Origin: Thermoanaerobaculia bacterium
GTDB taxonomy: Bacteria; Acidobacteriota; Thermoanaerobaculia; Multivoradales; Multivoraceae
Length of the DNA: 64,000 bases
Direction: 5' to 3'
NCBI GenBank assembly: GCA_963666565.1
Contig: OY762911.1
Location: forward strand, 2,728,476-2,792,475
This document shows positions 3,694 through 61,292 of this stretch, in pieces. The position numbers were made by a program, and so were the translations under genes. Position 1 is the first letter of the stretch; the number at the start of each line of letters is the position of its first letter. The notes beneath the pieces were generated by a model. That model was not told the origin of the DNA and made no database searches. It worked only from the letters and a program-made list of their open reading frames with translations.

Positions 3694-6144
3694 TCAGGTG
3701 TGCGCGGCCAGGAATTCGCCGTCCTGCTCGCGGCCCTCGAGCTGGTTGATGATGTGGTCGGTCATGAGCGGCAGGTAGGCCACCGTGTCCTGCCCCAGCG
3801 CGTCCTGGATGGCGCACAGGAGCGCGGCGCAGCCGGCGCCCATCGGCGGCTCGCCGATGCCCTTGGAGCCCACCGGGTTGTTCGGGTCCGGCATGTTCAC
3901 CGCGTCCCACTCCATCTCAAGCGGCACGTCGAGGATCGTGGCCGGCCGGGCGGTGTAGAAGCGGTTGGCGAAGGGGATGCCCCACTGCGGGTCGTACACC
4001 CACTTCTGGCCGACCGCGCAGCCGAAGCCCTGGACGGCGCCGCCGTGAAGCTGGCCGCCGAGGCTCCTGGGGTTGAGGACGGTGCCGCAGTCGGTGACCG
4101 CCTTGTAGTCCGCGAGTTCGATGACGCCGGTTTCCTTGTCCAACTCGATCTCGGCGTAGGCGACGACCCAGGAGTAGACGTCGCCGGCGCGGCCGTAGTT
4201 GTCCTTGGCGGCGGCCAGCAGGCCCTTGCCCTTGAGGACGGCGGCGCCTCCGAGCGTGATCGGGCTCAGGCCCTCGTTCAGCTCGGTGCCGTCGAAGCGG
4301 CCCCCGAGTTCGATCGCCTTCCGGGCGGCCTGGGCGAAGCTCAGGCCCGCCGCGCGGTTGCCGCGCCGGTAGACGCGCTCGCCGGCGACGACGTACTGCG
4401 AGGCCGAGCCGCCGTGGACCTGGGCCGCGATCTCCTGCAGCTTCGTCTTCATGTCGGTGGCGGCGGCGTGAGTGGCGCGGGTGATTGCGTGGGTCGTCTG
4501 GCTGCCCGCCTGCACGCAGGTGTGGGGGACGCCCTTGCCGGTGTCGCCCCAGACCATGTCCACCTTCTCCCACGGCACGTCGAGCAGGTCGGCGGCGACG
4601 CGCGCGGTGTCGGAGTAGGAGTGGGTGCCGAGGTTGCCGATCCCGGTGTGGATCTCGAGCCGGCCTTCCGGCGTGATCAGCATGAGTCCGTCGAAGCCGC
4701 TTGAACCGGCGGTGTAGGTCGAACTCGCGAGGCCGACGCCGGTGATCTTCGAGCCGTTTGCCTGCCCGCTGCGGGCCTTGGCGTCGTCCCAGTCGACCAT
4801 CTCGGCCAGCCGGTTCCAGGCCTCGGCAACGTAGGCGGTGGTCACGTTGCGACCTTCCCCGTCGCCGAACTTGGCGCCGTTCTTCGCGATGTTGATCTGG
4901 CGGATCGTCAGACGGTCGATCCCCAGGTGGTCGGCGGCGCGGTCGAGCAGGGGCTCGACCATGGCGGACATCTGCACGCCGCCCGGCGCCCGCTGCGGCG
5001 CCCTCGGCGGCGTGTTCGTCGCGATGGAGAGGCCGCGGTGGCGCATGTTCTCGGGCTGGTAGGTGAGGGACACCATGTTGCCCGAGGTGCCCATGTCGCT
5101 CTGGCGGCCGTACGGGCCGTTGTCCTGGATCACCGCCCAGTCGAAGGCGGTGATGCGGCCGTCGTTCCTGAATCCGATCTTCGCCCAGCCCTGGAAGCCG
5201 GGGCGGGCGCGGCCGATGTAGTTCTCCTCGTAGCGGGTGACCCGGTGCATGACCGGCTTGCCGGTCTTCTTCGCCAGGTAGACCGGCACCGCCATGTTGC
5301 TGGTGCCGACGATCTTGCTGCCGAAGCCGCCGCCGGTGTACTCGGCATGGACGACCAGGTTCTGGGGCGGCACCCCGACCGTGCCCTGGCCCGCGAGCAG
5401 CGTGAAGGCGACGCTCTGGGTCGAGGGATAGAGGTGGCAGGTTTCGCCTTCCCAGTGGGCCATGCAGCTCCGCGGCTCCATCGGGTGGTGGGTCACGGAC
5501 TGGAAGAAGAGCGGCTCGTCGATGATGTAGTCGGCGTCGGCGAAGCCCTTCTCCAAGTCGCCGTTCGTCCACTCGTCCTGGAACACGCCCTCGGGCATCC
5601 TGCCCTTCTCGCCGTCCGAGCCCCTCCCGGCAGCGAGATCCTCGGCCTTCCACTCGACGCGCTCGACGACGGTCTCCATTCCCGTGTCGGTGCGCCGGCG
5701 GACGATGCTGTTGCCGTCCGGCAGCGAGTTCGCGCCTCCCGGGGCGATCGAATCCAGCGGATCCAGCGCGAACGGGAGCGGCTCGAAGTCGACCTGGATC
5801 TTCTCGATCGCGTCGGCGGCGATCTTCTCGCTGACGGCGGCGACGGCGAGCACGGGCTCGCCCTCGTACTTCGGATGGTTCGTCAGGGAGCGTTCGTCCA
5901 GCGGCCCCGCCTCGCCCATGTACTCGGCGAGGTCGTCCGCGGTGAGAACCGCCTCGACGCCCTCCATCTCCAGGGCGGCGGAGGCGTCGATGTTGCGCAC
6001 CCGCGCGTGGGGCATCGGCGAGAGCAACTGCTTGGCGAACAGCATGCCCTCGGCGCGCCAGTCCTCGGCGTACTTGGCGCGGCCGGTGATCTTCTCGATC
6101 AGGTCGGGTGGGGCGTAGTCGGTGCCGACGAGGGTGTTGGCCAT
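3694..6144 (-). CDS. Molybdopterin-binding large subunit of a xanthine dehydrogenase / aldehyde oxidase-family molybdenum hydroxylase.
   Basis: About 816 aa with aldehyde oxidase/xanthine dehydrogenase a/b-hammerhead and Mo-binding regions (e.g. TGGGFG, GQLHGG..QG..E). Start chosen at MANTLVGTDY (ATG at 6144) because a GGAGGA sits 8 nt upstream. This is not the upstream in-frame ATG at 6183, which would overlap the small subunit. Confidence 0.8.
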   Translation of the reverse strand: MANTLVGTDYAPPDLIEKITGRAKYAEDWRAEGMLFAKQLLSPMPHARVRNIDASAALEMEGVEAVLTADDLAEYMGEAGPLDERSLTNHPKYEGEPVLAVAAVSEKIAADAIEKIQVDFEPLPFALDPLDSIAPGGANSLPDGNSIVRRRTDTGMETVVERVEWKAEDLAAGRGSDGEKGRMPEGVFQDEWTNGDLEKGFADADYIIDEPLFFQSVTHHPMEPRSCMAHWEGETCHLYPSTQSVAFTLLAGQGTVGVPPQNLVVHAEYTGGGFGSKIVGTSNMAVPVYLAKKTGKPVMHRVTRYEENYIGRARPGFQGWAKIGFRNDGRITAFDWAVIQDNGPYGRQSDMGTSGNMVSLTYQPENMRHRGLSIATNTPPRAPQRAPGGVQMSAMVEPLLDRAADHLGIDRLTIRQINIAKNGAKFGDGEGRNVTTAYVAEAWNRLAEMVDWDDAKARSGQANGSKITGVGLASSTYTAGSSGFDGLMLITPEGRLEIHTGIGNLGTHSYSDTARVAADLLDVPWEKVDMVWGDTGKGVPHTCVQAGSQTTHAITRATHAAATDMKTKLQEIAAQVHGGSASQYVVAGERVYRRGNRAAGLSFAQAARKAIELGGRFDGTELNEGLSPITLGGAAVLKGKGLLAAAKDNYGRAGDVYSWVVAYAEIELDKETGVIELADYKAVTDCGTVLNPRSLGGQLHGGAVQGFGCAVGQKWVYDPQWGIPFANRFYTARPATILDVPLEMEWDAVNMPDPNNPVGSKGIGEPPMGAGCAALLCAIQDALGQDTVAYLPLMTDHIINQLEGREQDGEFLAAHT

Positions 6145-11212: not shown

Positions 11213-11293
11213 GCTGGGTGCGCGGGTCTTCTGACCCGCTGCCGCCGAAGGCGGGCAGGAGCACGCGCCGCGAAGCGGCTCCGCTTGGCGGCC
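11213..11293 (+). repeat. Copy B of the triple-hairpin intergenic repeat.
   Basis: ctgggtgcgcgggtcttctgacccgctgccgccgaaggcgggcaggagcacgcgccgcgaagcggc. Hairpins GCGGGTC-TTCT-GACCCGC, GCCGCC-GAAG-GCGG and GCCGC-GAA-GCGGC. It begins 13 nt after the ICL stop and ends 18 nt before the metalloprotease GTG start. Confidence 0.85.
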
Positions 11294-15128: not shown

Positions 15129-15524
15129 TCGCCGGTCCTCGCCCGTTCCATGCCGGAACCGAGGCCGCGGAAGGGGCGGAGCGACCGGTTCGGTCCACTG
15201 GGGAGGTAGTCAGTCGACGTCACGCGAGGAGGAGCGCGCCGCTCCGCCCCCGACCCGGTTTACGCACCGGCACCGGACAGGGTTTCGGCACCGGAGCCGA
15301 CCAGCCCAGTCGGGTAAGGAGGGGTCGGCGCCCAGGTGCCTCTGAACGAGCGACGGCCGACGCCTTCCCGGAAGCCGACCCCGAACCGGAGCGAGTGAAG
15401 CGTAGCAAGCGCAACCCTGCCCATCTCCTCTGGAGCGCGCGCGTCACCTGGGTGCCGACCCCTCCTGACCCAAGACGGGCGGGTGCGTCCGACGCCGCTT
15501 CGCCGCGTCTTGCGGTGCCGCCTC

Positions 15525-17380: not shown

Positions 17381-18973
17381 ATGGCGAGCCGTTTCCCGGC
17401 CGGTTCCGGGCGCCTCCTGGCGATCGTCCTGAGTCTCGTAGCGGTGGGGTCCGGCGCGGTTGGCGCCCAGGTGTTGCGCCTGGACCGGATCGAGCTGCCG
17501 GACGGGTTCTCGATCGGCGTCTTCGCCGACGACGTTCGGGGCGCCCGGTCGCTCGCCCAGAGCCCGGTGGGAACCGTGTTCGTCGGCAGCCGGCCGGAGG
17601 GCGTCGTCTACGCGCTGGTCGATTCGGACGACGACGGCGAGGCGGACGGGACATACCGTCTGGCGTCCGGGCTGAACTCGCCGAACGGCGTCGCCTTCCG
17701 CAACGGCGACCTCTACGTGGCCGAGATCAGCCGGATACTCCGGTACGACGGCATCGAGAGCCGGCTGGACTCGCCTCCTCGGCCGGTCGTGGTCACCGAT
17801 CGTCTCCCAAGGGACGAGCATCACGGCTGGAAGTTCATCCGCTTCGGGCCGGACGGCCGGCTCTACGTGCCGGTCGGCGCTCCCTGCAACGTCTGCGACG
17901 AGCCCGACCCCTACAACTCGATCCTGCGCCTCGCCGCGAACGGCAGCTACGAGATCGTGGCGCGGGGAGTGCGGAACACAGTCGGCTTCGACTGGCATCC
18001 GGCGACCCGCCGGCTGTGGTTCACGGACAACGGCCGCGACTGGCTGGGCGACGACAGTCCGCCGGACGAGTTGAACGTGCTGACGTCCAACGGGCAGCAC
18101 TTCGGTTACCCGTACTGCCACGGCCGCGACATCGCCGACCCGGAGTACGGCAACCGGCGTTCCTGTTCGGAGTTCCGGCCGCCGGCCCAGGCGCTCGGGC
18201 CGCACGTCGCGGCGCTCGGGATGCGGTTCTACACGGGGACCGCGTTCCCGGAGCGCTACCGGGGCCAGATCTTCATCGCCGAGCACGGGTCGTGGAACCG
18301 GACAGACCCGATCGGCTACCGGGTCATGGTGGTCCGGCTGGACGGTAGCGGCCGGGCGGCCGGCTACGAGGAGTTCGCGACCGGCTGGCTCCAGGGGCGA
18401 AGCGCGTGGGGCCGGCCGGTGGACGTGATGGTGCGCGAGGACGGTTCGCTGCTCGTGTCGGACGACCGGCAGGGGGCGATCTACCGCATCGTGCACGAGT
18501 CGGCGGCACAACCCGACCCCGACCCGGATCCCGATCCGCCGGAGCCCGACCCCGATCCTCCGCCCGAACCGGATCCCGATCCGCCGACGGAAGGCCCGTG
18601 CGAGCCGGGACCCGACACCCTTTGCCTGTTGGACGGCCGCTTCGAACTGAAGGTCCGCTGGTGGACGGCGGGCGGCGAGCCGAACCCGGGCTACGTGGCG
18701 GAGTACGGCACGGCGGATTCCGGCATGTTCTGGTTCCTGGACGCGTCCAACTGGGAGATCCTGGTCAAGGTCCTGGACGGCTGCGCCCTGAACGGCCACG
18801 TCTGGGTCTACGGCGCCTCGACGACGGACCTGGGCTACTCGATCCATGTGAGGGACACGGCGACCGGCGAGGTGAGCGGCCCGTACCGCAACGAGCCCGG
18901 CCGACCCGCCCCGGCGATCACCGACAACCGCGCGTTCAGCCAGGCCTGCACGGCGTCCGCGTCGGTCCCGTAA
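17381..18973 (+). CDS. PQQ-dependent soluble sugar (glucose/sorbosone) dehydrogenase-family beta-propeller protein with a Pro-Asp repeat linker and an extra Cys-containing C-terminal domain of about 140 aa.
   Basis: GSDH-family motifs (LNSPNGVAF, HGWKFIRFGPDGRLYVPVGAPCNVC, HFGYPYCHG). Signal peptide. Linker PDPDPDPDPPEPDPDPPPEPDPDPP at about 18510-18590. The C-terminal region is absent from the paralog. Confidence 0.7.
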   Translation: MASRFPAGSGRLLAIVLSLVAVGSGAVGAQVLRLDRIELPDGFSIGVFADDVRGARSLAQSPVGTVFVGSRPEGVVYALVDSDDDGEADGTYRLASGLNSPNGVAFRNGDLYVAEISRILRYDGIESRLDSPPRPVVVTDRLPRDEHHGWKFIRFGPDGRLYVPVGAPCNVCDEPDPYNSILRLAANGSYEIVARGVRNTVGFDWHPATRRLWFTDNGRDWLGDDSPPDELNVLTSNGQHFGYPYCHGRDIADPEYGNRRSCSEFRPPAQALGPHVAALGMRFYTGTAFPERYRGQIFIAEHGSWNRTDPIGYRVMVVRLDGSGRAAGYEEFATGWLQGRSAWGRPVDVMVREDGSLLVSDDRQGAIYRIVHESAAQPDPDPDPDPPEPDPDPPPEPDPDPPTEGPCEPGPDTLCLLDGRFELKVRWWTAGGEPNPGYVAEYGTADSGMFWFLDASNWEILVKVLDGCALNGHVWVYGASTTDLGYSIHVRDTATGEVSGPYRNEPGRPAPAITDNRAFSQACTASASVP

Positions 18974-19006: not shown

Positions 19007-20176
19007 ATGCCGCGGTCCGCTTTCGCTCAACGTCTTCGCTTCGCCGCGCCCTGCGCGGCCGGTCTTCTCATCGCGCTCTCGGGGGGCGGCGTCGCTCTCG
19101 CCGCCGACGACGAGGTCCGCCTGGACCTGATCGAGCTTCCCGCCGGTTTCTCGATCGACGTCTTCGCCGCGGAGATCGACAACGCACGCTCGCTGGCCCA
19201 GAGCCCGTCCGGGACCGTCTTCGTCGGCACCGGACGCAGGGGCGGCGGCGTCGTTCATGCCGTCGTCGATTCGGACGGGGACGGAAGGGCCGACGACCGC
19301 TACCGCATCGGCGGCGACCTGAACTGGCCGAACGGCGTCGCCTTCCACGAAGGCGACCTGTACGTTGCGGAGATCAGCCGCGTACTTCGGTTCGCGGAGA
19401 TCGAGAGCCGGCTCGACTCACCGCCCGCGCCGGTCGTGGTCACTGCCGACCTGCCGGAGGAGACTCATCACGGCTGGAAGTTCATCCGTTTCGGTCCCGA
19501 CGGGCGGCTCTATGTGCCGGTGGGCGCCCCGTGCAACATCTGCGACGAAGGGGATCCCTTCGCGACGATCCTCCGGCTGGACGAGGCGGGCGGCTACGAG
19601 GTCGTCGCCCGCGGCGTGCGCAACACGGTCGGCTTCGACTGGCGTCCGAGCACGAGCGAACTGTGGTTCACGGACAACGGCCGGGACATGATGGGCGACG
19701 ACGTTCCGCCCGACGAACTGAACGTGCTGACGGAGGACGGCCAGCACTTCGGCTACCCCTACTGCCACGGTCAGGACATTCCCGACCCGGAGTTCGGCGA
19801 CCGGCGTTCCTGCGGCGAACTCGTGCCGCCGGCCATCGACCTCGGCCCGCACGTGGCGGCCGTGGGCATGCGCTTCTACCGGGGCGATGCCTTCCCTGAG
19901 CGCTACCGCGGGCAGATCTTCATCGCCGAACACGGTTCCTGGAACCGCAGCAACAAGATCGGCTACCGGGTCATGGTGGTTCACGTCGACCGGGACGGCC
20001 AGGCGACGGACTACGAGGAGTTCGCCACCGGTTGGCTCCAGGGCGAAGACTCGTGGGGCCGCCCGGTCGACGTGATGGAACGCGCCGACGGGTCGCTTCT
20101 CGTGTCGGACGACCAGCGCGGCGCGATCTACCGCATCGTCCATGACGGGTCCGCGGCCGCGGCCGCCGGAGAGTAG
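19007..20176 (+). CDS. PQQ-dependent soluble sugar dehydrogenase-family protein, a tandem paralog of the upstream gene.
   Basis: 389 aa, roughly 65-70% identical by eye to residues 1-370 of the 17381 gene (same motifs and order). Signal peptide MPRSAFAQRLRFAAPCAAGLLIALSGGGVALA. Confidence 0.75.
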   Translation: MPRSAFAQRLRFAAPCAAGLLIALSGGGVALAADDEVRLDLIELPAGFSIDVFAAEIDNARSLAQSPSGTVFVGTGRRGGGVVHAVVDSDGDGRADDRYRIGGDLNWPNGVAFHEGDLYVAEISRVLRFAEIESRLDSPPAPVVVTADLPEETHHGWKFIRFGPDGRLYVPVGAPCNICDEGDPFATILRLDEAGGYEVVARGVRNTVGFDWRPSTSELWFTDNGRDMMGDDVPPDELNVLTEDGQHFGYPYCHGQDIPDPEFGDRRSCGELVPPAIDLGPHVAAVGMRFYRGDAFPERYRGQIFIAEHGSWNRSNKIGYRVMVVHVDRDGQATDYEEFATGWLQGEDSWGRPVDVMERADGSLLVSDDQRGAIYRIVHDGSAAAAAGE

Positions 20177-21454: not shown

Positions 21455-21535
21455 GCTGGGTGCGCGGGTCTTCCGACCCGCTGCCGCCGAAGGCGGCCGG
21501 GAGAACGCCAGCCGTCGGCTCGGCGCCGTTTCGCG
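21455..21535 (+). repeat. Copy C of the triple-hairpin intergenic repeat, between convergent genes.
   Basis: ctgggtgcgcgggtcttccgacccgctgccgccgaaggcggccgggagaacgccagccgtcggctcggcgcc. First two hairpins conserved; third module variant GCCGTCGGCTCGGCGC. Confidence 0.8.
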
Positions 21536-25874: not shown

Positions 25875-26861
25875 TCAGGCTCGCTCGATCGGGAACGGGA
25901 CGAGTTCGTCGATGCCGTTCGCATCCAGTTCGAGTCCCAGCAAGCGGTCGAGGCCCAGGGCGACGCCGGCGCACTCGGGGAGACCGGCTTCGAGGGCGGC
26001 GAGGAAACGGTGCGGTATCGGCGGCAAGGGCCGGCCGAGTTCGCGCCTGCGGGCACGGTCGGACTCGAGTCGCTGACGCTGCTCGCGCGGGTCGACCAGT
26101 TCGCCGTAGCCGTTGGCGAGTTCGATGCCGCCGACGTAGGCCTCGAATCGCTCCGCCGTGCGCGGGTCGCTCGCGTCGATCCGCGCCATCGCGGCCTGGG
26201 AGGCCGGGTAGCCGAAGACGATCGTGACGCGGTCGGGCGCGAGCCTGGGTTCGACGCGCTCGCCGAACAGCCGCGAGAGCAGGTCGTCCCGGTCGAGGCC
26301 GCTGGTTTCGACGGGTGCGCGGGCGTCCTCGACGGCGCGCCGCAGGTCGCCCGTCGAGGCGCCGTACGGGTCGATCCCGGCGTGCCGCCGCAGGAGATCG
26401 GCGTAGCTCACGTACTCCGCCGGCTCGAGGCGGCGCGAGCCGGAGAGGAGGGTCTCGATCAGGGCCGCGACTTCACGCATCAGCCGGTGGACGTCCCAGC
26501 CGACCCGGTACCACTCCAGGATCGTGAACTCGGGGTTGTGCCAGCGCCCCCGTTCGCCGCCGCGGAACGCCTTGCACACCTGGTAGATCGAGCCGGAACC
26601 GGCGGCCAGCAGGCGCTTCATCGCCAGTTCCGGCGAGGTCTGAAGGTACATCCGCCGGCGCTCGATCCCCGGCGCGTCGACCCTGGAGCTCAGGGGTTCC
26701 AGGTGCAGGTCGAGAGTCGTCTCGGCCGAGAGCAGGGGTGTTTCGACTTCCAGGACGCGCCGTTCCGCGAAGAAGGCGCGCAGCCTGGCGAGCATCGCCG
26801 CGCGCCGCTCCAGGGCCGCTGGCCCGGCGGTGGGCCGCCAGTCCGCGGCGTGGCCGGTCAC
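25875..26861 (-). CDS. epmA: Elongation factor P--(R)-beta-lysine ligase EpmA (PoxA/GenX, LysRS class II paralog).
   Basis: Class II aaRS motifs (LQTSPELAMKRLLAAG, FRGGERGRWHNPEFTILEWY, GVALGLDRL). 3 nt downstream of efp. Confidence 0.8.
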   Translation of the reverse strand: MTGHAADWRPTAGPAALERRAAMLARLRAFFAERRVLEVETPLLSAETTLDLHLEPLSSRVDAPGIERRRMYLQTSPELAMKRLLAAGSGSIYQVCKAFRGGERGRWHNPEFTILEWYRVGWDVHRLMREVAALIETLLSGSRRLEPAEYVSYADLLRRHAGIDPYGASTGDLRRAVEDARAPVETSGLDRDDLLSRLFGERVEPRLAPDRVTIVFGYPASQAAMARIDASDPRTAERFEAYVGGIELANGYGELVDPREQRQRLESDRARRRELGRPLPPIPHRFLAALEAGLPECAGVALGLDRLLGLELDANGIDELVPFPIERA

Positions 26862-32064: not shown

Positions 32065-32251
32065 CACCCCCGCAGCCCCGACGGGCTGGACGGCGTCGGT
32101 TGGCGGAGACGGGCGCCGACCCAAGCGGATTGCCGGGTGCGTGGCCCGGTTAGGCGGACTCGCCGGTGTAGAAAGGCGACTGTGCGAAGTGCGGCCTCCG
32201 AATCGAGCGGCGCCGACTTCGCGCACCGCGCCGCGACGCGATCCGAAGCGC

Positions 32252-34177: not shown

Positions 34178-34290
34178 CGGCTTCTCCTTGAGAGCGTGTC
34201 GGGTCAGTCTACTATTGGCCTCTCATGGAAGTGGTCGGCAAGAGCGGTATCGGCTTGACGGCGGGCCGGCGCGATGTTCCGGCCGCCCTG

Positions 34291-34356
34291 TCGGTGCGCC
34301 GGTCTTCCGACCCGCCGCCGAAGGCGGCGAGGACTTCGCACCGCGAAGCGGCGCCC
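34291..34356 (+). repeat. Copy D of the triple-hairpin intergenic repeat, between divergent DUF3604 genes.
   Basis: tcggtgcgccggtcttccgacccgccgccgaaggcggcgaggacttcgcaccgcgaagcggcgcc. Its 3' flank supplies GAGGAGG 6 nt upstream of the GTG start at 34371. Confidence 0.8.
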
Positions 34357-36956: not shown

Positions 36957-37256
36957 CGCTGGAGGTGGCACCCGCCGGCCCGGGGCCTGAGGGGGAGGGC
37001 CCAGCGGACGTTCGCGCTTTCGGAGTTTGGGGGACGACTGCGCTCACTCCGCTTCACTCGCTCCGGTCGGGCGTCGGTTGGGGGAATGACGTCGGGCGTC
37101 GCTCGTTCAGAGGCCGCTGGGACCCTCCGCCTCAGACCCCGGACCGGCTGCACGTCGTCAGCCCCGGACCGGCTGGACGTCGTCGGGCGGTCGGACCGAA
37201 CGCCGGCTGGCACGAACGAGAGGACGGAGGTGCTGGTGGGCGATTTGGGACGTTCC

Positions 37257-37325
37257 ACACTGGGTGCGCAGGCGTCCTCGCCGGCTGCCGCCGGAGGCGG
37301 CCAGTAGACGGGCCGCGAAGCGGCC
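37257..37325 (+). repeat. Copy F of the triple-hairpin intergenic repeat. It is diverged in hairpin 1.
   Basis: ctgggtgcgcaggcgtcctcgccggctgccgccggaggcggccagtagacgggccgcgaagcggcc. Hairpins 2 and 3 are intact. Confidence 0.65.
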
Positions 37326-37379
37326 ACGATCTCCGCCAGATGGCTCAACGAAACGTGATTCAACCGTAGAGGCTACGTC

Positions 37380-38654
37380 TTGTCCAAGGAGCCGAGGCGT
37401 GGGCAAGGGATGGTTCCGGCGGAGGCGGCCGGGCTCTACGTCCACATCCCCTTTTGCTCGGCGATCTGTCCCTACTGCGACTTTGCGGTGGCGCGGGGTG
37501 GCGAGGCGGATGGGGAGCGGTTTGTTGATGCCTTGGTTGGAGAGATCGATTCCTTCGGCTGCAGGGGGCGAGAGCGGAATCGGACTGGCGAGGCTGAGAG
37601 GTTCGGTACCGGCGGGTTCGACACTGTGTACTTCGGCGGAGGTACTCCCTCGGCGCTGGGCCTGGAGCAGCTTGGGGCGATTCGGCGGCGATTGGTCGGG
37701 ACGTTCCTGATCGATCCCGAGGCCGAGTGGACGATCGAGGTGAACCCGGAGGATGCGTCGCCCGAGGCGCTGTCGGGCTGGCGGGAACTCGGTTTCGACC
37801 GGGTCAGTCTGGGCCTGCAGGCGTTGGACGATCGGGCGTTGCGCTTTCTCGGGCGGCGGCACGATGCGGCGGCGGCGCGTGCGAGCGTCGAAGGGGCACG
37901 TGCCGCGGGTTTCCGGTCGGTGTCGGTCGACCTGATCTACTCGTTGCCCGGATTCGACGGCGGCTGGTGGCTTCGGACGCTGGACGAGGCGGCGGCGCTC
38001 GGGCCGGACCACGTCTCCTGCTACGAACTGACGATCCACGACGGGACGCCGTTCGGCCGGCGGCGGGACGCGGGCAGGCTGCGGGACACCGGCGAAGACG
38101 AGCGGGCCGCCAACTTCGTCGCCACGCATCGGCGGCTCGCGAAGCTCGGCTACGAGGGCTACGAGGTCTCGAACTTCGCCCGCCGCGTGGCGGACCGGAG
38201 CCGCCACAACCGGAAGTACTGGCGGCACCGGCCCTATCTGGGGCTGGGGCCTTCGTCGCACTCCTTCGCCGGGCGCAGTCGGTGGTGGAACGTGGCTCCG
38301 TGGAAGGACTGGAGCGCCGCGGTGGCGAGCGGTGAATCTCCGGTCGCCGGTCGCGAGGAACTGACCGACGACCAACTGCTGCTGGAAGCGGTGATGATGG
38401 GACTCCGCCAGCGATCCGGCATCGACTGCGCCGCGCTGGAGCGGCGTTTCGGCATCGATCCGTCCGCCGGCAACGCCGGGCGAATCGAAGCCTGGGAGAA
38501 GGCGGGCTGGCTCCGGGTCGTTGGCCGGCGACTGACGCCGACCCTCGAAGGCATGGCCCGGGCCGATCGCCTTGCGGGGGAGTGGATCCTCCCGGCCGGC
38601 GGTAGCCGGCGCCGCCGGAGGCGCGCGGCCTCGTCGTCGCCCGTGAGCGGGTAG
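37380..38654 (+). CDS. hemW: Radical SAM heme chaperone HemW / HemN-like coproporphyrinogen III oxidase family protein.
   Basis: CSAICPYC radical-SAM Cys triad near the N-terminus. HemN C-terminal-like domain. Confidence 0.75.
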   Translation: MSKEPRRGQGMVPAEAAGLYVHIPFCSAICPYCDFAVARGGEADGERFVDALVGEIDSFGCRGRERNRTGEAERFGTGGFDTVYFGGGTPSALGLEQLGAIRRRLVGTFLIDPEAEWTIEVNPEDASPEALSGWRELGFDRVSLGLQALDDRALRFLGRRHDAAAARASVEGARAAGFRSVSVDLIYSLPGFDGGWWLRTLDEAAALGPDHVSCYELTIHDGTPFGRRRDAGRLRDTGEDERAANFVATHRRLAKLGYEGYEVSNFARRVADRSRHNRKYWRHRPYLGLGPSSHSFAGRSRWWNVAPWKDWSAAVASGESPVAGREELTDDQLLLEAVMMGLRQRSGIDCAALERRFGIDPSAGNAGRIEAWEKAGWLRVVGRRLTPTLEGMARADRLAGEWILPAGGSRRRRRRAASSSPVSG

Positions 38655-38667
38655 TCTGACCTCGACG

Positions 38668-39201
38668 ATGAGACGCCCGCCCGCAGGAGCGGAGAAGGTG
38701 CGCGCCCTGATGCGGCGCCTGGGCGGTGCGGCCCGCAGTCCCGGGCGGATCTATCTGGTGGGGGGCGCCTCCGCCGTCCTCGTCGGCTGGCGGGAGACGA
38801 CGATCGATGTCGACCTCAAGCTCGATCCGGAGCCGGAGGGCGTCTTCGCCGCGATCGCCGGGGCGAAGGAGGCGCTTCGGGTGAACGTGGAACTCGCGGC
38901 GCCCGACGACTTCCTGCCCGCGCTGCCCGGGTGGCGCGACCGCAGTCCGTTCGTCGCGCGTCACGGGGTTGTCGATTTCTTTCACTACGACTTCCACGCC
39001 CAGGCTCTCGCGAAGATCGAACGGGCCCACGCCCAGGACCTGGCCGACGTGGAGGCGATGCTGGAGCGCGGCCTGGTCACGGCGCCGCGGCTCCTGGATC
39101 TGTTTCGACGGATCGAGCCTGAACTGGAACGCTATCCGGCAGTCGAGCCCAGGTGTCTTCGCCTGAGGGTGCTTCGCTACGCCGGCGAGGACGGGGCATG
39201 A
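38668..39201 (+). CDS. Hypothetical protein with a nucleotidyltransferase-fold-like N-terminus.
   Basis: 177 aa. GGASAVLVGWRETTIDVDL resembles the hG[GS]...DhD NTase signature. Family not recognised. Confidence 0.35.
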   Translation: MRRPPAGAEKVRALMRRLGGAARSPGRIYLVGGASAVLVGWRETTIDVDLKLDPEPEGVFAAIAGAKEALRVNVELAAPDDFLPALPGWRDRSPFVARHGVVDFFHYDFHAQALAKIERAHAQDLADVEAMLERGLVTAPRLLDLFRRIEPELERYPAVEPRCLRLRVLRYAGEDGA

Positions 39202-39605
39202 CCGGGCCGGAAACGGCTGCGCTCGACCGCGTGCCGGCGACGCTCCCGGGCGCGGATCTCGTGGCGGCGGGGATCGAGGCGCTGCGGCGGGGAGAGACGA
39301 CGGAGGAGGCTCTGCTGGTTCTGATCGGCGCCTGGCGGCTCCGCGCCGCCGGTCTGGATGTTCCGGCGGCGCCGGACCTCGAGACGTCGCCCGAGATCGC
39401 CCTCTACGGGATGATCGCCGCCAGGCGCTCGGCCGACGCGCACTCCCGTTACAACGCGCTTGTCCGTCGCCTGGTCAGCTTCGAGCGCGCGTTGGAGAGC
39501 CGGCCTTCGGCCGGCGCGTCTTTCCGGCCGCCTTCGGCGGCAGCCGGCGAGGACGCCGGCGCACCCAGTGTGCGGCCCCGTTCCCCGCGCGACAGCGCAG
39601 CCTGA
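39198..39605 (+). CDS. Hypothetical protein, translationally coupled to the upstream gene.
   Basis: 135 aa from the ATG at 39198. ATGA overlap with the upstream stop. No recognisable motif. Confidence 0.3.
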   Translation: MTGPETAALDRVPATLPGADLVAAGIEALRRGETTEEALLVLIGAWRLRAAGLDVPAAPDLETSPEIALYGMIAARRSADAHSRYNALVRRLVSFERALESRPSAGASFRPPSAAAGEDAGAPSVRPRSPRDSAA

Positions 39606-39620
39606 CGGCTGCGAACACTC

Positions 39621-42441: not shown

Positions 42442-42510
42442 ACCCTCCGCACTCCCGTGCGACTCAGTAGCCGGACCAATCCTCGGACCATCGAGCCAGA
42501 CGACGACGTC

Positions 42511-42700
42511 CCGCCCGAGCCGGGCCGGGGGGCGGGGTCCCGGGGGGTCGGAGGCAAGTGACTCCCGGCGCCCTTCCGGCAACCGACGCCGAGCAGGAAC
42601 GCAGCCGACAACAGCGAGCCCACCCCTTCCGTCCTCTGCCTTGAGGGCGAGCGTCCCCCGGGACCCTCCCCCCGGCCCGGATCGGGCGGGTTCGCGCCCC
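42511..42700. repeat. Long imperfect inverted repeat with arms of about 38 nt flanking a spacer of about 115 nt. It lies in a convergent intergenic region.
   Basis: Left arm ccgcccgagccgggccggggggcggggtcccgggggg (42511-42548). Right arm cccccgggaccctccccccggcccggatcgggcgg (42665-42700). The reverse complement of the right arm matches the left arm except for a few mismatches. Confidence 0.7.
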
Positions 42701-42704
42701 GGCG

Positions 42705-43886
42705 CTACGCCGTAGCCGACCGCGGCCGGTTCACCACCCGGTCGAGCGCGCCGCGCAGGTCGGCGACCAGGTCTTCCCCGTTCTCGATTCCGATCGAGAG
42801 CCGCAGGAGCCGGTCGCCGATGCCGGCCGCGGCCCTTGCCTCCGCCGTCATCGAGGCGTGGGACATGGTGGCCGGGTGGGAGATCAGGCTCTCGACGCCG
42901 CCAAGGGACTCGGCGAACGAGAAGCACGTCAGGTTCGAGACCAGGTGGGCCACGTCGCCGGCGTCGCCCCGGAGGTCGAAGCTCGCCATGGCGCCGAAGC
43001 CGTCCTGCTGGCGCCTGGCGATCTCGTGGCCGGGATGGTCCGGCAGGCTCGGGTGGTAGACCCGTTCGACGGCCGGATGCTCGCGGAGCATCTCGACGAC
43101 CGCCAGCGCGTTCTCCTCGTGGCAGCGCAGGCGGCTGTGCAGGGTGCGCAGCCCGCGCAGCGTCAGGTAGCTGTCGAAGGGAGCGCCGGCCACGCCCATC
43201 ATGTTCGCCCACTCCTCGAAGAACTCGTGGAGTTCCGGCGTCGCGGCGACGACGGCGCCGCCGACCACGTCGCTGTGGCCGTTCAGGTACTTCGTCGTCG
43301 AGTGGATGACCGCGTCGGCCCCCCGTTCGATGGGCCGCTGAAACGCCGGCGACATGAACGTGTTGTCGGCCACGACCAGCGCGCCGGCCTGCTTCGCGTG
43401 TCGGCAGACGGCTTCCAGATCGGTGATGCGAAGCAGCGGGTTGCTCGGCGTCTCGACCAGAACCAGCCTCGGTCCCGAGGCGAGAGCCGTCGCCGCGGCC
43501 TGCCGGTCCGTCAGGTCGGCGAACTCGACCTCCAGCAGGCCGCGCTGCCGGAGGCGGTCGAAGAGGCGGAACGTGCCGCCGTAGCAGTCGTGGGCGGCGA
43601 CGATCCGGTCGCCGGGGTCGACCAGTTGGCAGACCAGGGTCACCGCCGCCATGCCGGAAGCGGTGACGACGGCGCCGTGGCCGCCCTCGGCCTCGGCCAG
43701 CGCTTCGGCGAGGGCGGATCGCGTCGGGTTGCCGGAGCGCGTGTAGTCGTACGGCCGCTTGCCGTCCAGGCCGGCGAACGTGAAGTTGGCCGAGAGATGC
43801 AGCGGCGGAACGACCGCTCCGTGGTGTTCGTCGGTAGCGAGCGCCGCGCGGACGGCGCGGGTTGCCGGGTCGTGGTTCTTTGTCAT
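42705..43886 (-). CDS. Cystathionine gamma-synthase / beta-lyase family PLP enzyme (Cys/Met metabolism).
   Basis: HSTTKYLNGHSDVVGG PLP-lysine motif. N-terminal NPTR. Confidence 0.8.
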   Translation of the reverse strand: MTKNHDPATRAVRAALATDEHHGAVVPPLHLSANFTFAGLDGKRPYDYTRSGNPTRSALAEALAEAEGGHGAVVTASGMAAVTLVCQLVDPGDRIVAAHDCYGGTFRLFDRLRQRGLLEVEFADLTDRQAAATALASGPRLVLVETPSNPLLRITDLEAVCRHAKQAGALVVADNTFMSPAFQRPIERGADAVIHSTTKYLNGHSDVVGGAVVAATPELHEFFEEWANMMGVAGAPFDSYLTLRGLRTLHSRLRCHEENALAVVEMLREHPAVERVYHPSLPDHPGHEIARRQQDGFGAMASFDLRGDAGDVAHLVSNLTCFSFAESLGGVESLISHPATMSHASMTAEARAAAGIGDRLLRLSIGIENGEDLVADLRGALDRVVNRPRSATA

Positions 43887-44332
43887 GTGAGTCTCCGGTC
43901 GAAAGGAGGTTGGGCGGTCCCGCTTGCGCGGAACGGGTTCAACGCTCTCCCGAGAAGACTTCTACGGAGAGTGACCGGAGGTGGCGTCGAAACCGCGTTC
44001 ATGCGGCTCTTGACTCATCTCTCGGCAAGCCCCGTCCGAGGACGGAACTCCCGTAGGAGTTGGCACCTTCCCCAGGGTTGCGAAGCCCCGGTGGTTGCCC
44101 CGGCGTCGACGGGCCTGTCCCTCAGCCGGTCTCGATGAGTTGCTCCGGCCACGGGGAACCGCGCCGAAGCGGACGGATCGTAGCAGACGGTCGCGCGCCC
44201 GGCGGCGAAGCCGCCGGTGCTATGCTGATCGGCAGTTCCGTTGACCCTCTCCGGGCGACGCGTGTCGTCCTGGTTCGCTTTTCGGTAACGCCGCATCCCG
44301 CCGTCGGGATGGGCATTGAAGGGAGGTCCCTG

Positions 44333-48618: not shown

Positions 48619-48716
48619 GACGGGCTGTTCGGTCCTCGGGGCTTGCGCCGTGGAACGCTACGGCGTGAGTCTACGGCGCAAGCTCCCGGGTGAGGACGGC
48701 GTTGATACCCTCGCCC

Positions 48717-54795: not shown

Positions 54796-55756
54796 GGCGG
54801 CGAGTCGGCGTCGGCGCCGGGGCCCTGGCGCAGCCTGGCTGCCGGGACTTGGGTTGCTCCTCCTTCCGGTTGCCGTTGCGTCGCAGGCGCCGGAGGAGGC
54901 GCCGCCTCCTGGCTCCGCGAACGGCGAGGCGGATGCCGGCCAGAGAGCCGGCGCACCGACAGGCGAGGCGGAAACTCCGGAGAGTCCCCCGGTCGAGTAC
55001 TCGTCCCCCTACGCCGCCTGGGACGCCGGCGCCTACGACCAGGCCCTGCGGGGATTCGCGGACCGGCAGACCCGGCGGCCGGACGACCCGGAACTGAACC
55101 TGAACGTCGGCGCGGCCCACTACAAGCTGGAGGACTTCGAGGCGGCGGCCGGCGAGTTCTACCGGGCGGCGGCGATCGGCGACGACGAGCTGCGCGCCCA
55201 GGCGCTCTACAACCTGGGGAACAGCGCCTACCGTCAGGGCAAGCTGAAAGACGCAGTCGACTTCTACAGGTCGTCCCTCGAGGCGAACCCCGACGATCTC
55301 GACGCGAAGTTCAACCTGGAGTTCGTGCGGGAGGAGATGACGCAGCGCCAGCAGCAGAACCAGGGCGGCCAGGACCAGGAGCAGAACCAGGACCAGCAGC
55401 AGGACCAGGGCCAGGAACAGGGAGAGAGCGGGCAGCAGCAGGACGATGCCGATCGGGGGCAGGCAGAGCAGCCCTCCGACGAGCAGCAGGAGCAGGGCGA
55501 CCAGGGCCGGGACGAACAGCCGCAAGGCGGCGAGGGTCCGCAGGACAGTGAGGGAGACGACGTACCGGACGCGGCGGATCCCGACTCGCCGGCCGACGGG
55601 CCGGAGAGCGACGACCGGGGCGGCCCCGGGGAGCTGCCTCCGGGCATGACGCCGGAGGAGGCCGAGCGCTACCTGCAGGCGCTGGAAGAGGGGCGGCCGG
55701 ACCCGACGCGGCGCGGGCAGCGCGGTCGCCGGAGCCGTCAGGCGAAGGACTGGTAG
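54779..55756 (+). CDS. batC: TPR-repeat protein BatC with a Q/E/D-rich low-complexity tail.
   Basis: TPR-like repeats (AAHYKLEDFEAAAGEFYRAAA, LYNLGNSAYRQGKLKDAVDFYRSSLEANP), then QQQNQGGQDQEQNQDQQQDQGQEQGESGQQQDD... Confidence 0.65.
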   Translation: MPRPREAASRRRRRGPGAAWLPGLGLLLLPVAVASQAPEEAPPPGSANGEADAGQRAGAPTGEAETPESPPVEYSSPYAAWDAGAYDQALRGFADRQTRRPDDPELNLNVGAAHYKLEDFEAAAGEFYRAAAIGDDELRAQALYNLGNSAYRQGKLKDAVDFYRSSLEANPDDLDAKFNLEFVREEMTQRQQQNQGGQDQEQNQDQQQDQGQEQGESGQQQDDADRGQAEQPSDEQQEQGDQGRDEQPQGGEGPQDSEGDDVPDAADPDSPADGPESDDRGGPGELPPGMTPEEAERYLQALEEGRPDPTRRGQRGRRSRQAKDW

Positions 55757-60151: not shown

Positions 60152-60484
60152 ATGAAGCGCTTCTACCTCCTACTCTGCGTCTTGGGCACGGTGCTGCCGT
60201 ACTGGCAGTTCCTGCGGTTCTTCCTGGGCGACGCCGGGTTCGACCTGCCCGGCTTCATCGGCGCGGCGACGGCCAATCCGGTAGCGGCCGGCTTCAGCAT
60301 CGACCTCGTCGTGTCGTCCGCCGCGTTCTGGGTCTTCCTGTTCACGGACGGCCGCCGACACCGTATCGGCCATCTGTGGGTGTACGTCGCGGCGAACCTG
60401 CTGGTCGGCCTGTCGCTGGCGCTGCCGCTCTACCTCTACCGCCGCGCGGCGGCGATCGAACCACTGGGTACGCGTGTCTTCTGA
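60152..60484 (+). CDS. Small membrane protein (DUF2834-like).
   Basis: 110 aa from the ATG at 60152, 3-4 TM helices. Its stop codon lies inside hairpin 1 of repeat copy E. Confidence 0.45.
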   Translation: MKRFYLLLCVLGTVLPYWQFLRFFLGDAGFDLPGFIGAATANPVAAGFSIDLVVSSAAFWVFLFTDGRRHRIGHLWVYVAANLLVGLSLALPLYLYRRAAAIEPLGTRVF

Positions 60485-60533
60485 CCCGCTGCCGCCGCCA
60501 GGCGGCCGGGAGACGCCGCCGCGAAGCGGCGAC
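60464..60533 (+). repeat. Copy E of the triple-hairpin intergenic repeat.
   Basis: ctgggtacgcgtgtcttctgacccgctgccgccgccaggcggccgggagacgccgccgcgaagcggcgacc. Confidence 0.8.
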
Positions 60534-60605: not shown

Positions 60606-61142
60606 TCAGGACGTCGCGTCCGGCGGCCACGGCTTGGTGCGGATGACACGACCGACGTCGCCCGGCTCGGCAATCGCGCGCTGCTTCGAGAGCACCTCGC
60701 TCATCCGCTCGTGAATCTCGGGCGGAAAGAGAGTGCTGCGCCGCGTGTCCAGGTCGATATGGATGCTCAGCAGCTCGTGCGTCGCGGCGACGTAGCCTTC
60801 CTCGGCGTGCAGCATGCGCATGAAGGTGTGGTACTTCTTGTCGTCGAAGCCCAGAAGCTCCGCTTCGACCATGATCGGCGCGCCCTCCGGCAGTTCCCTC
60901 AGCCAGGTGAGATGGCTGTCGATGGAGAACGTGGAGCGCCGGTGCGAGCGGCGGTAGGTCCGGTCGATGCCCAGGAACGCGGTCCAGGGGCCCGTCGCGT
61001 CGTCGAACGCGACCAGGTAGTAGCCGGCGTTCATGTGGCCGTTGTGGTCGATCCACTCCGGCAGGACCGTAGCGGTCCAGATCTGCTGCGGGTCGGTCAA
61101 GTGGGGGTCCAGGAGCTTGCGCCGGAATGCGCAGCGTAGCAA
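60606..61142 (-). CDS. Hotdog-fold acyl-CoA thioesterase (4HBT/YbgC-like). Start is uncertain.
   Basis: HNGHMNAGYY...H.DL 4HBT-like region. No in-frame ATG near the domain start. Candidate TTG starts at 61142 or 61100. The upstream part of the 475-aa track ORF looks non-coding (Arg-rich). Confidence 0.5.
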   Translation of the reverse strand: MLRCAFRRKLLDPHLTDPQQIWTATVLPEWIDHNGHMNAGYYLVAFDDATGPWTAFLGIDRTYRRSHRRSTFSIDSHLTWLRELPEGAPIMVEAELLGFDDKKYHTFMRMLHAEEGYVAATHELLSIHIDLDTRRSTLFPPEIHERMSEVLSKQRAIAEPGDVGRVIRTKPWPPDATS

Positions 61143-61292
61143 GTCCGCGGCGCAAGCTCCTGGACGAGGACGGGATGGGCCGAAGCGCCGAGCCTGCGAG
61201 GAGCTTCGAGGCGGCAACTGGAAGCGGCTCTTGCGCCTGGAACACCTTGCTACGATCCCGCGCCGGACACGGCCACCACAGGAGTCCCTCGC

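Follow-up and report, generated by a model that had tools for sequence, protein, structure and literature searches.

Two long intergenic regions of the window, by which we mean the whole 64-kb stretch of DNA analysed here, appear to share a block of sequence in inverted orientation. The question raised by this locus is whether the two regions are plain spacers that look alike or whether they carry copies of a repeated element, and, in the latter case, what kind of element it is. The sequence-only reading of the window had matched the block at 15316-15400 with the reverse complement of 37030-37125 at about 75% identity. This match was borne out, and it extends further than had been noted. Gapped blastn aligned 15331-15486 with 37121-36968 at 73.6% identity over 159 nt (E 5.6e-18), and in a repeat search no inverted pair of the window was longer than that of the arms 15302-15422 and 37030-37150 (121 nt, 73% complementary). 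In addition, each of the two 18-mers GCCTCTGAACGAGCGACG and ACCGGAGCGAGTGAAGCG occurred exactly twice in the 64-kb window, once in each spacer.

The similarity of the two spacers might be explained by a chance resemblance of G+C-rich low-complexity intergenic DNA, since the G+C content of the genome is 70.7% and the repeat search returned many weak pairs with about 70% identity in the window. The match, however, is not limited to low-complexity GC strings. It is colinear over 159 nt (blastn E 6e-18) and contains specific motifs, including the two exact 18-mers common to both spacers, and the element was found in dozens of other genomes with profile E values down to 1e-59. The blastn, motif and profile matches already refute the chance explanation, to which we give practically no weight.

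A family profile (nhmmer) was made from 48 members and was used on the window and on the DNA fetched from other genomes. The profile search showed three copies within the 64-kb window. Copy 1, a hairpin repeat of the canonical form that we call type A, is located at 15286..15497 on the plus strand (profile match 15296-15488, E 3e-51), between the stop codons of the M20 peptidase gene (15128) and the FabI gene (15525), as assigned by Pfam. Copy 2, which has a stem of type B, is located at 36968..37159 on the minus strand (nhmmer E 6e-40), 11 nt past the stop codon of a DUF3604 gene and upstream of a HemN-like gene (Pfam), and by synteny four related genomes (L027, L087, L077 and L035) have its orthologue at this position. 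Copy 3, at 42501..42693 on the plus strand (nhmmer E 1.6e-8), is degenerate and had been overlooked in the sequence-only reading; it had already given a weak blastn match at about 42.5 kb. This copy lies between the stop codons of the Ddl gene (42441) and a Cys/Met PLP enzyme gene (42705; Pfam). The earlier idea that these regions are non-coding repeated elements and not plain spacers was thus upheld, while the size of the unit had to be corrected from 250-400 nt to about 200 nt.

The element, with a length of 194-210 nt, is a long imperfect G+C-rich hairpin in which about 30 bp, arranged in three helical segments, close a C-rich interior of about 106 nt. All three copies in the window adopt the same fold. 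On the strand shown, the fold of copy 1 had a free energy of -110.8 kcal/mol and a z score of -4.2 (RNAfold), the z score of copy 2 was -5.3, and the values of copy 3 were -132 kcal/mol and -5.4. The stem of copy 3 is nearly perfect, and its interior motifs have decayed. In copy 1, the 5' arm (15286..15338, plus strand) pairs with the 3' arm (15445..15497, plus strand) over 53 nt with 74% complementarity, and the pairing shows covariation throughout the family. The sequence-only reading had described a hairpin module starting with ctgggtgc in both spacers. The module at 37257-37325 is real. The segment at 15436-15500, on the other hand, did not fold by itself (z +0.13) and did not match the pattern of the small repeat, and because the two arms of copy 1 pair with each other, we assign this segment to the 3' arm of the copy 1 hairpin rather than to a separate module.

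The interior contains two motifs and a small inner hairpin. Its order is invariant CCTCTGAACGAGCGACG, a variable segment of about 30 nt and invariant CCGGAGCGAGTGAAGCG, and no helix is supported in its first 65 nt or so. In the window, motif A (GCCTCTGAACGAGCGACG; 15338..15355, plus strand) and motif B (ACCGGAGCGAGTGAAGCG; 15385..15402, plus strand) are exact in copies 1 and 2. The string CTGAACGAGCGACG was nearly invariant in the 48 family members, which had not been selected on it. That is, the invariance of CCTCTGAACGAGCGACG is independent of the search key, whereas the family-wide invariance of motif B, and so of CCGGAGCGAGTGAAGCG, arises by ascertainment, because motif B served as the search key. 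The conserved motifs are direct, not inverted, copies in relation to each other, and a GAGYGAG-like core occurs three times within the interior. The interior motif sequences CCTCTGAACGAGCGACG and CCGGAGCGAGTGAAGCGGAGTGAGCGC are candidate recognition sites for a protein. The inner hairpin (15405..15442, plus strand; helix 4 of the alignment) consists of GCAAGCGC, a pyrimidine-rich loop of 22 nt and GCGCGCGC; its columns 130/169 contain UA in 29 members and CG in 18. Taken as a whole, the interior consists of 38% C and 27% G. Pyrimidines make up 75% of the inner loop, in which there is on average about one G. In many type A copies the 5' side is extended by 45-60 nt, which include the small hairpin GTCGGTGC...GCACCGAC. 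Two strings of the interior, AACGAGCG and GAGCGCAACCC, are similar to AACGAGCGCAACCC, which we take to be a segment of 16S rRNA; an Rfam search with E values up to 10 gave no match to an rRNA model in either spacer. A small ORF in the interior was also considered and was rejected from the invariance at all three codon positions.

RNAalifold predicted a consensus fold composed of the long outer stem and the inner hairpin from the alignment of the 48 sequences. We counted the covariation of a 38-pair structure on this alignment, using 500 column shuffles as the control. The proportion of paired cells was 92.9%, compared with 85.1% in the column shuffles and 36-52% with slid partners. Changes on both sides were found in 22 pairs and 131 cells, the covariation score was 0.219 against 0.082, and none of the 500 shuffles matched any of the observed covariation values. 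In one stem column pair, for example, the counts were AU 28, CG 11, UA 3 and GC 2, and in another they were AU 21, GC 18, CG 2 and UA 1. The arms differ between copies by compensated changes, as seen in types A and B, and the best-conserved sequence is that of the interior.

We also compared the mismatches in the two helices. In the outer stem there were 24 G-T and 18 A-C mismatches, and these counts do not say which strand is selected, or whether selection acts on DNA or RNA. In the inner helix, tandem G.A/A.G was present in half of the copies (48 cells, against 1 cell with C.T/T.C). Such pairs are stable only on the strand shown, and they may derive from a small number of events.

The distribution of the family was examined with the 17-mer CCGGAGCGAGTGAAGCG as the search key in one genome per species, and at least 113 loci matched. 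In at least 58 of these cases GAACGAGCGACG, a motif independent of the search key, was found upstream at the expected spacing, and the remaining matches listed were scattered chance matches. The profile search of the fetched DNA gave at least 55 full-length copies, which correspond to at least 30 independent sites after grouping by flanks. Among the matches listed, the carriers are about 25 genomes from Thermoanaerobaculia, 'Ca. Multivorans' and acidobacterial MAGs associated with sponges or corals. All the listed carriers of CCGGAGCGAGTGAAGCG together with GAACGAGCGACG belong to Acidobacteriota, with 'Holophagales' and 'Acidobacteria' among the labels of the sponge and coral MAGs, and on these matches the family is confined to one clade of Thermoanaerobaculia within this phylum. 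In IMG/VR we found no viral copies, the scan with the 17-mer giving only four chance matches. The metagenome scan for M20|fabI spacers beside FabI relatives, which gave more distant Acidobacteriota (at most 73% identity), did not detect the element.

The search for structured RNA with the covariance models of Rfam 15 gave no relevant match in either spacer. Over the whole window, the SAM riboswitch was the only hit at the gathering threshold, and in the two spacers an E value of up to 10 returned only chance matches to microRNA and snoRNA models below 19 bits. A known Rfam 15 family was therefore rejected, as no covariance model matched either spacer near its gathering score, and 6S, SRP and Y RNAs were rejected because there is no Rfam match and the element is multi-copy. 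A retron ncRNA was rejected since no reverse transcriptase is nearby, and an integron attC since there are neither core sites nor a cassette array. We found no description of the repeat family in the literature searched or in Rfam. Thus, a large structured repeat family of Thermoanaerobaculia and 'Ca. Multivorans'-type Acidobacteriota is apparently defined here for the first time.

We next describe the gain and loss of the copies. The window has synteny with five of the fetched loci, at a nucleotide identity of 83-89%, and from this we take it to belong to a 'Ca. Multivorans'-like genome. Every syntenic locus that extends over the 37-kb site has the copy there. The window and L035 both have the copy at 42.5 kb; L077 and L087 lack it, and in these two genomes 9 nt separate the stop codons. 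Similarly, a copy downstream of ruvB is absent in L112. A third polymorphic site is found downstream of lepA, where L108 has a full copy and the window has only what may be a collapsed stub, the small hairpin CAGCCC-CGAC-GGGCTG at 32066..32098 on the minus strand, whose profile match (E 2.8) is not significant by itself. Target-site duplications were not found at the filled and empty sites between ddl and the PLP-enzyme gene and downstream of ruvB, the flanks of which are poorly alignable, so that a duplication of very few nucleotides may have been missed.

The copies that are kept are well conserved. The identity between orthologous copies was 76-86%, whereas that of the third codon positions of ruvB was 60-80% and the adjacent spacer could hardly be aligned at all (31-55%). 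At the 37-kb site, the conservation of the element was likewise above that of the neighbouring synonymous sites (84% against 77%). The paralogues within OZ245033, however, are 91-96% identical, which is equal to or above the identity of orthologues, and we therefore think that recent spread or gene conversion contributes to the conservation. Gene conversion may account for the conservation just as much as function does. Between the two good copies in the window the identity is 73.6%, whereas copy 1 shares 91% identity with a copy from another genome that is not its orthologue. Since many copies are stably orthologous across species, the mobility of the element, if any, is slow.

We then analyzed the positions of the copies relative to genes, using Pfam for the window and a crude GC3-based gene caller elsewhere. 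Among the sites listed, 12 were located between convergent genes, 8 between co-directional (tandem) genes and 2 between divergent genes, and the rest were unassigned. The placement was strictly intergenic among the sites classified, and the 3' end of the element, according to the same gene caller, was usually 1-75 nt from a stop codon. The same distribution has been described for REP sequences, which are extragenic and lie mostly between convergent or co-directional genes near stop codons (PMC3733652). In other genomes, copies flank single housekeeping genes, such as ruvB (ruvA|copy|ruvB|copy) and an aminotransferase gene. The copies on either side of ruvB are inverted with respect to each other, ruvA|(-)|ruvB|(+), and at the informative tandem sites the orientations were 5 against 3. 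We thus rejected the view, suggested by a count of 40/49, that the orientation to the adjacent gene is constant; this appearance is an artefact, because convergent sites are uninformative and orthologues were counted repeatedly. A scan for sigma-70-like promoters and intrinsic terminators detected neither in the two spacers. An independent sRNA gene was rejected from this result and from the mixed orientation in tandem contexts.

The element is itself a frequent site of insertion and duplication. The same 66-nt palindromic insert was found in three loci at one internal position (profile position about 152), and partial tandem duplications of arms or halves were frequent. The 25-nt tandem duplication noted earlier in the 37-kb spacer was confirmed by TRF (37132..37184, period 25, 2.1 copies, 92% matches). 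It repeats the outer 5' arm of copy 2 (profile positions 3-29), as indicated by a weak profile match at 37185-37159. Furthermore, in three genomes an island of about 4.2 kb interrupts the element at its 9-bp core GGAGTGAGC. The island starts with a gene for a tyrosine integrase (Arm-DNA-bind_3, Phage_int_M, Phage_integrase).

These findings bear on the earlier suggestion that the element is mobile or recombinogenic. The suggestion is reasonable, because copies are gained and lost between relatives, partial tandem duplications occur and an integrase uses the element as an attachment site. Mobility of the transposon type is not demonstrated by these data, because terminal inverted repeats conserved in sequence, target-site duplications and a transposase were looked for, and none of them was found. 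The all-vs-all clustering of ORFs at 56 element-bearing loci detected no recurrent transposase or RAYT beside the copies, only syntenic housekeeping genes, and no recurrent non-syntenic ORF family that might represent a parent IS with the ends of the element.

The strong covariation in two helices raises the possibility that the element is a structured ncRNA or a cis-acting RNA module, transcribed as part of the 3' UTR of the upstream gene or, in antisense, from the side of the convergent gene. Its conserved single-stranded interior would then be displayed by the covarying stem to a protein or RNA partner. In one version of this reading, the C-rich and G-poor interior, with its nearly G-free inner loop, would load Rho and stop antisense transcription into the neighbouring gene. 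This explanation accords with the invariance of the unpaired motifs across about 25 species-level genomes among the matches listed, with the conservation above the neighbouring synonymous sites, with the tandem G.A/A.G pairs that are stable on one strand only, and with the usual position of the 3' end close to a stop codon. P4-type integrases usually target RNA genes, and one integrase of this type targets the element. However, there was no Rfam match even at E values up to 10, and neither spacer contained a sigma-70-like promoter or an intrinsic terminator. Both orientations occur at co-directional sites, and the ruvB copies are opposite, which would be intolerable for a strand-specific RNA. 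The long stem shows no strand preference between G-U and A-C, copy 3 has retained the stem and lost the motifs, and the copy number, estimated at about 100 per genome, is what one expects for a dispersed repeat rather than an RNA gene. We therefore regard an RNA family as rather unlikely.

The orientation data suggest another explanation, in which the element is a DNA binding platform for a host chromosomal protein. The motifs containing GAGCGA would be the sites of binding, and the palindrome would favour a cruciform or bending of the DNA. The BIMEs of E. coli are known to bind gyrase, IHF or Pol I. The motifs are retained whatever the orientation to transcription, the GAGYGAG-like core is repeated three times, the placement is strictly intergenic, and the mismatch statistics of the stem are symmetric between the strands, all of which is in line with such a platform. 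But the compensatory 30-bp stem is explained no better than by models of a single-strand hairpin, and copy 3 has no motifs. We consider this explanation very unlikely.

Compared with these alternatives, we think it probable that the element represents a new family of interspersed hairpin repeats like ERIC, REPIN and BIME, namely a non-coding and non-autonomous DNA that is gained and lost and is a hot spot for insertions and slippage. The copies may have spread as non-autonomous DNA to the 3' ends of many genes, and the near-identical copies within some genomes may result from homogenisation or recent amplification. The trait that is maintained would be the ability of one strand to fold back on itself, either when the DNA is single-stranded in the course of mobilisation or replication, or in the RNA made by read-through from the upstream gene. 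REPINs are also hairpins in which compensatory changes are common (PMC3116915). The interior motifs may be the recognition site for a trans-acting protein, such as a mobilising enzyme or a DNA- or RNA-binding protein of the host, since they are retained whichever way the element lies relative to transcription. When present in a 3' UTR, the hairpin might also serve the upstream mRNA, incidentally or usefully, as a barrier or insulator at its 3' end, a role that has been reported for REP and ERIC.

A further speculation, which in our judgement is distinctly unlikely, is that the element is not selfish DNA but a clade-wide, multi-copy functional module whose stem displays the invariant single-stranded motifs to a dedicated partner. 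It might be, for example, a portable and orientation-dependent site for Rho loading or RNA-protein docking that insulates the 3' ends of genes. This speculation presupposes very G+C-rich genomes without canonical intrinsic terminators. If it were true, the family would represent a class of structured regulatory RNA/DNA modules not described before, which spread by duplication.

To place the family of interspersed hairpin repeats that we favour, we compared it with known systems. ERIC sequences (also called IRU), the enterobacterial repetitive intergenic consensus, are imperfect palindromes of about 127 bp. They have a consensus common to different species, lie in intergenic regions at the transcribed ends of genes in either orientation, vary in copy number and carry internal insertions at fixed positions. 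The present element resembles them as a long imperfect palindrome with a cross-species consensus, located between genes at gene ends in either orientation, and its nested 66-nt insert recalls the internal-insertion variants of ERIC. The two differ in that they have no sequence relationship, belong to different phyla and differ in size (about 200 nt for our element); moreover, the most conserved parts of our element are the unpaired interior motifs, whereas its arms vary with compensation. We thus place the element in the ERIC-like class, which is a functional class and does not imply homology, and in this comparison co-transcription is presumed by analogy.

The likeness to REP, BIME and REPIN sequences lies in the extragenic position near stop codons, the compensated hairpin, the mosaics with small repeats and the tandem or nested clusters. 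A REPIN, however, consists of two inverted and conserved REPs of 20-40 nt tagged with GTAG or CGTC, whereas the motifs of our element are interior and direct, and it is not a textbook REPIN. In REP-RAYT systems, a single-copy RAYT gene encoding a Y1 transposase is flanked by the repeats, and no RAYT was found beside any copy of the element examined. The window contained no RAYT either; the single candidate, an ORF with inverted REP-like copies on both sides (38668-39201), proved to be DUF6036 and not Y1_Tnp, and was rejected.

The element also resembles MITEs such as Correia/NEMIS of Neisseria, which measure 100-300 bp, in its inverted arms, high copy number, intergenic position, presence/absence polymorphism and, by analogy, presumed co-transcription with the neighbouring genes. 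It is small (about 200 nt), occurs at no fewer than 30 sites, and was gained or lost at three sites. In MITEs the terminal inverted repeats, to which the transposase binds, are conserved in sequence and match those of the parent IS, and the insertion is flanked by a duplicated target site, which is TA in the case of Correia. In contrast, the arms of our element are not conserved in sequence, and no target-site duplication was found, so that it is not a textbook MITE. Finally, as in the multi-copy RNA candidates of the Rfam type, covarying helices enclose conserved single-stranded segments. Our element differs from these candidates in the absence of an Rfam 15 match, a promoter and a terminator, in the occurrence of both orientations and in the copy number of a dispersed repeat.

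The family accounts for several of the long spacers in these genomes. It can serve as a lineage marker and a typing target, flags a ready-made attachment site for integrase islands, and will cause breaks in short-read assemblies of the MAGs. A dispersed repeat having both heavy covariation of the stem and invariant unpaired motifs is a clean case, and the old question of ERIC and REP, that is, whether they are selfish DNA or RNA/DNA structures useful to the host, is made directly testable by this family.

A separate small repeat accompanies the element at some sites. The unit consists of CTGGGTGCGC-GGGTC-TTCT-GACCC-GC followed by GCCGCC-GAAG-GCGGC, which form two adjacent short hairpins, and 9-10 copies of this REP-like family are present in the window (10 pattern matches, compared with 0.6 expected). 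One of them, CTGGGTGCGC...GCCGCCGGAGGCGGC at 37259..37312 on the plus strand, forms a mosaic with copy 2. The elements had been described earlier as composite, and this holds for the 37-kb spacer; no such module is present at the 15-kb copy. Among 50 copies, 15 had the small module within 200 nt on the 5' side and only 1 had it on the other side. Because the module is beside 15/50 copies only, the composite exists but is optional. Insertion of the element into a pre-existing small REP tagged with CGTC was considered and rejected, as the palindrome in question is not repeated in the window and is missing from the empty sites. The small palindrome CAGCCCNNNNGGGCTG gave 1 match in the window against 0.44 expected and is not a repeat family. 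CGTCC is present near both ends of the element. The small CTGGGTGCGC two-hairpin family is a better analogue of REP than the element of about 200 nt, and on the 5' side its module keeps a fixed orientation relative to the element.

In three loci from other genomes (L109, L068 and L063), the hairpin repeat, an interspersed intergenic family of about 200 nt, was found to harbour an island of about 4.2 kb, which interrupts it at a 9-bp core, GGAGTGAGC. In L109 the island junctions lie at 1357 and at about 5480-5580 (reverse strand coordinates). The first gene of the island encodes a tyrosine integrase of the P4 type, with the domains Arm-DNA-bind_3, Phage_int_M and Phage_integrase. The usual attB is a tRNA or tmRNA gene. 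Since the junction between the island and the hairpin repeat is the same in the three genomes, these results indicate that here the dispersed repeat, and not a tRNA or tmRNA gene, acts as attB.

The hairpin repeat also carries a 66-nt insert in three other loci (L008 5005-5070, L015 4275-4339 and L029 4617-4681), in each case at one shared internal site, at about position 152 of the 48-sequence profile of the repeat. The insert is composed of two short palindromes, GTGGCGCG-ATCC-GCGCCAC and CCGTGCGCCC-GTCA-GCGGGCGCACGG, and represents another nested small repeat family. Furthermore, the gap between the repeat and the adjacent stop codon is occupied by short arrays of tandem units (period about 13-27 nt) that derive from the sequence at the 3' end of the repeat; in one example, GGCGGGTGCAGCGCAACGCCA recurs about 6 times. 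Such arrays are located at L104 5043-5200 and in the 3' flanks of L013, L071/L075, L084 and L090. In the interior of the repeat, the strings AACGAGCG (window 15350-15358) and GAGCGCAACCC (15407-15417), which also occur in the family consensus, together resemble the conserved 16S rRNA segment AACGAGCGCAACCC. This likeness is probably coincidental, because no rRNA model matched either of the two spacers that carry the first two window copies of the repeat (15129-15524 and 36957-37379).

A small REP-like family, with a unit of about 50 nt, is distinct from the hairpin repeat. Its unit consists, in order, of CTGGGTGCGC, the hairpin GGGTC-TTCT-GACCC and the hairpin GCCGCC-GAAG-GCGGC. A pattern search of the window gave 10 matches against 0.6 expected, among them 11214-11239, 21456-21481, 26311-26336, 34290-34315, 37260-37285 and 60464-60489 on the plus strand and 1785-1810, 39543-39568 and 54935-54960 on the minus strand. 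On our reading of crude gene calls, the clearer solo copies in the window lie directly 3' of a stop codon and are co-directional with the upstream gene. The HemN-like gene and a DUF6036 ORF are enclosed by two copies (37256-37302 and 39526-39572) that show 96% complementarity to each other.

This DUF6036 nucleotidyltransferase-like ORF (177 aa, 38668-39201) lies within a segment of about 1 kb (38587-39620) that is missing from the same position in the syntenic loci L077, L035 and L087. The segment terminates at the small REP-like copy 39527-39576 and looks like a small inserted cassette. In relatives (L108 3115-5431, L027 1-658), the lepA-like gene and the gene that follows it are separated by an SRPBCC/AHSA1-like gene, and in L108 also by a full hairpin repeat, whereas the window counterpart (32065-32251) is only 187 nt long and contains a stub hairpin, CAGCCC-CGAC-GGGCTG.

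Two further pairs of similar segments were found in the window. The neighbouring coding segments 17464-17899 and 19105-19546, spaced by about 1645 nt, are paralogous and 75-82% identical across several hundred nt, a similarity that suggests a tandem gene duplication. A 62-nt direct repeat (48638-48699 and 61112-61173, 73% identical) contains the palindrome GCTTGCGCCG...CGGCGCAAGC, and these two copies may represent yet another intergenic hairpin family. In addition, the third window copy of the hairpin repeat adjoins the 3' end of a minus-strand gene (42705-43886) for a PLP enzyme of Cys/Met metabolism, and a SAM (S-box) riboswitch (44012-44141, minus strand, 72 bits) lies upstream of this gene.
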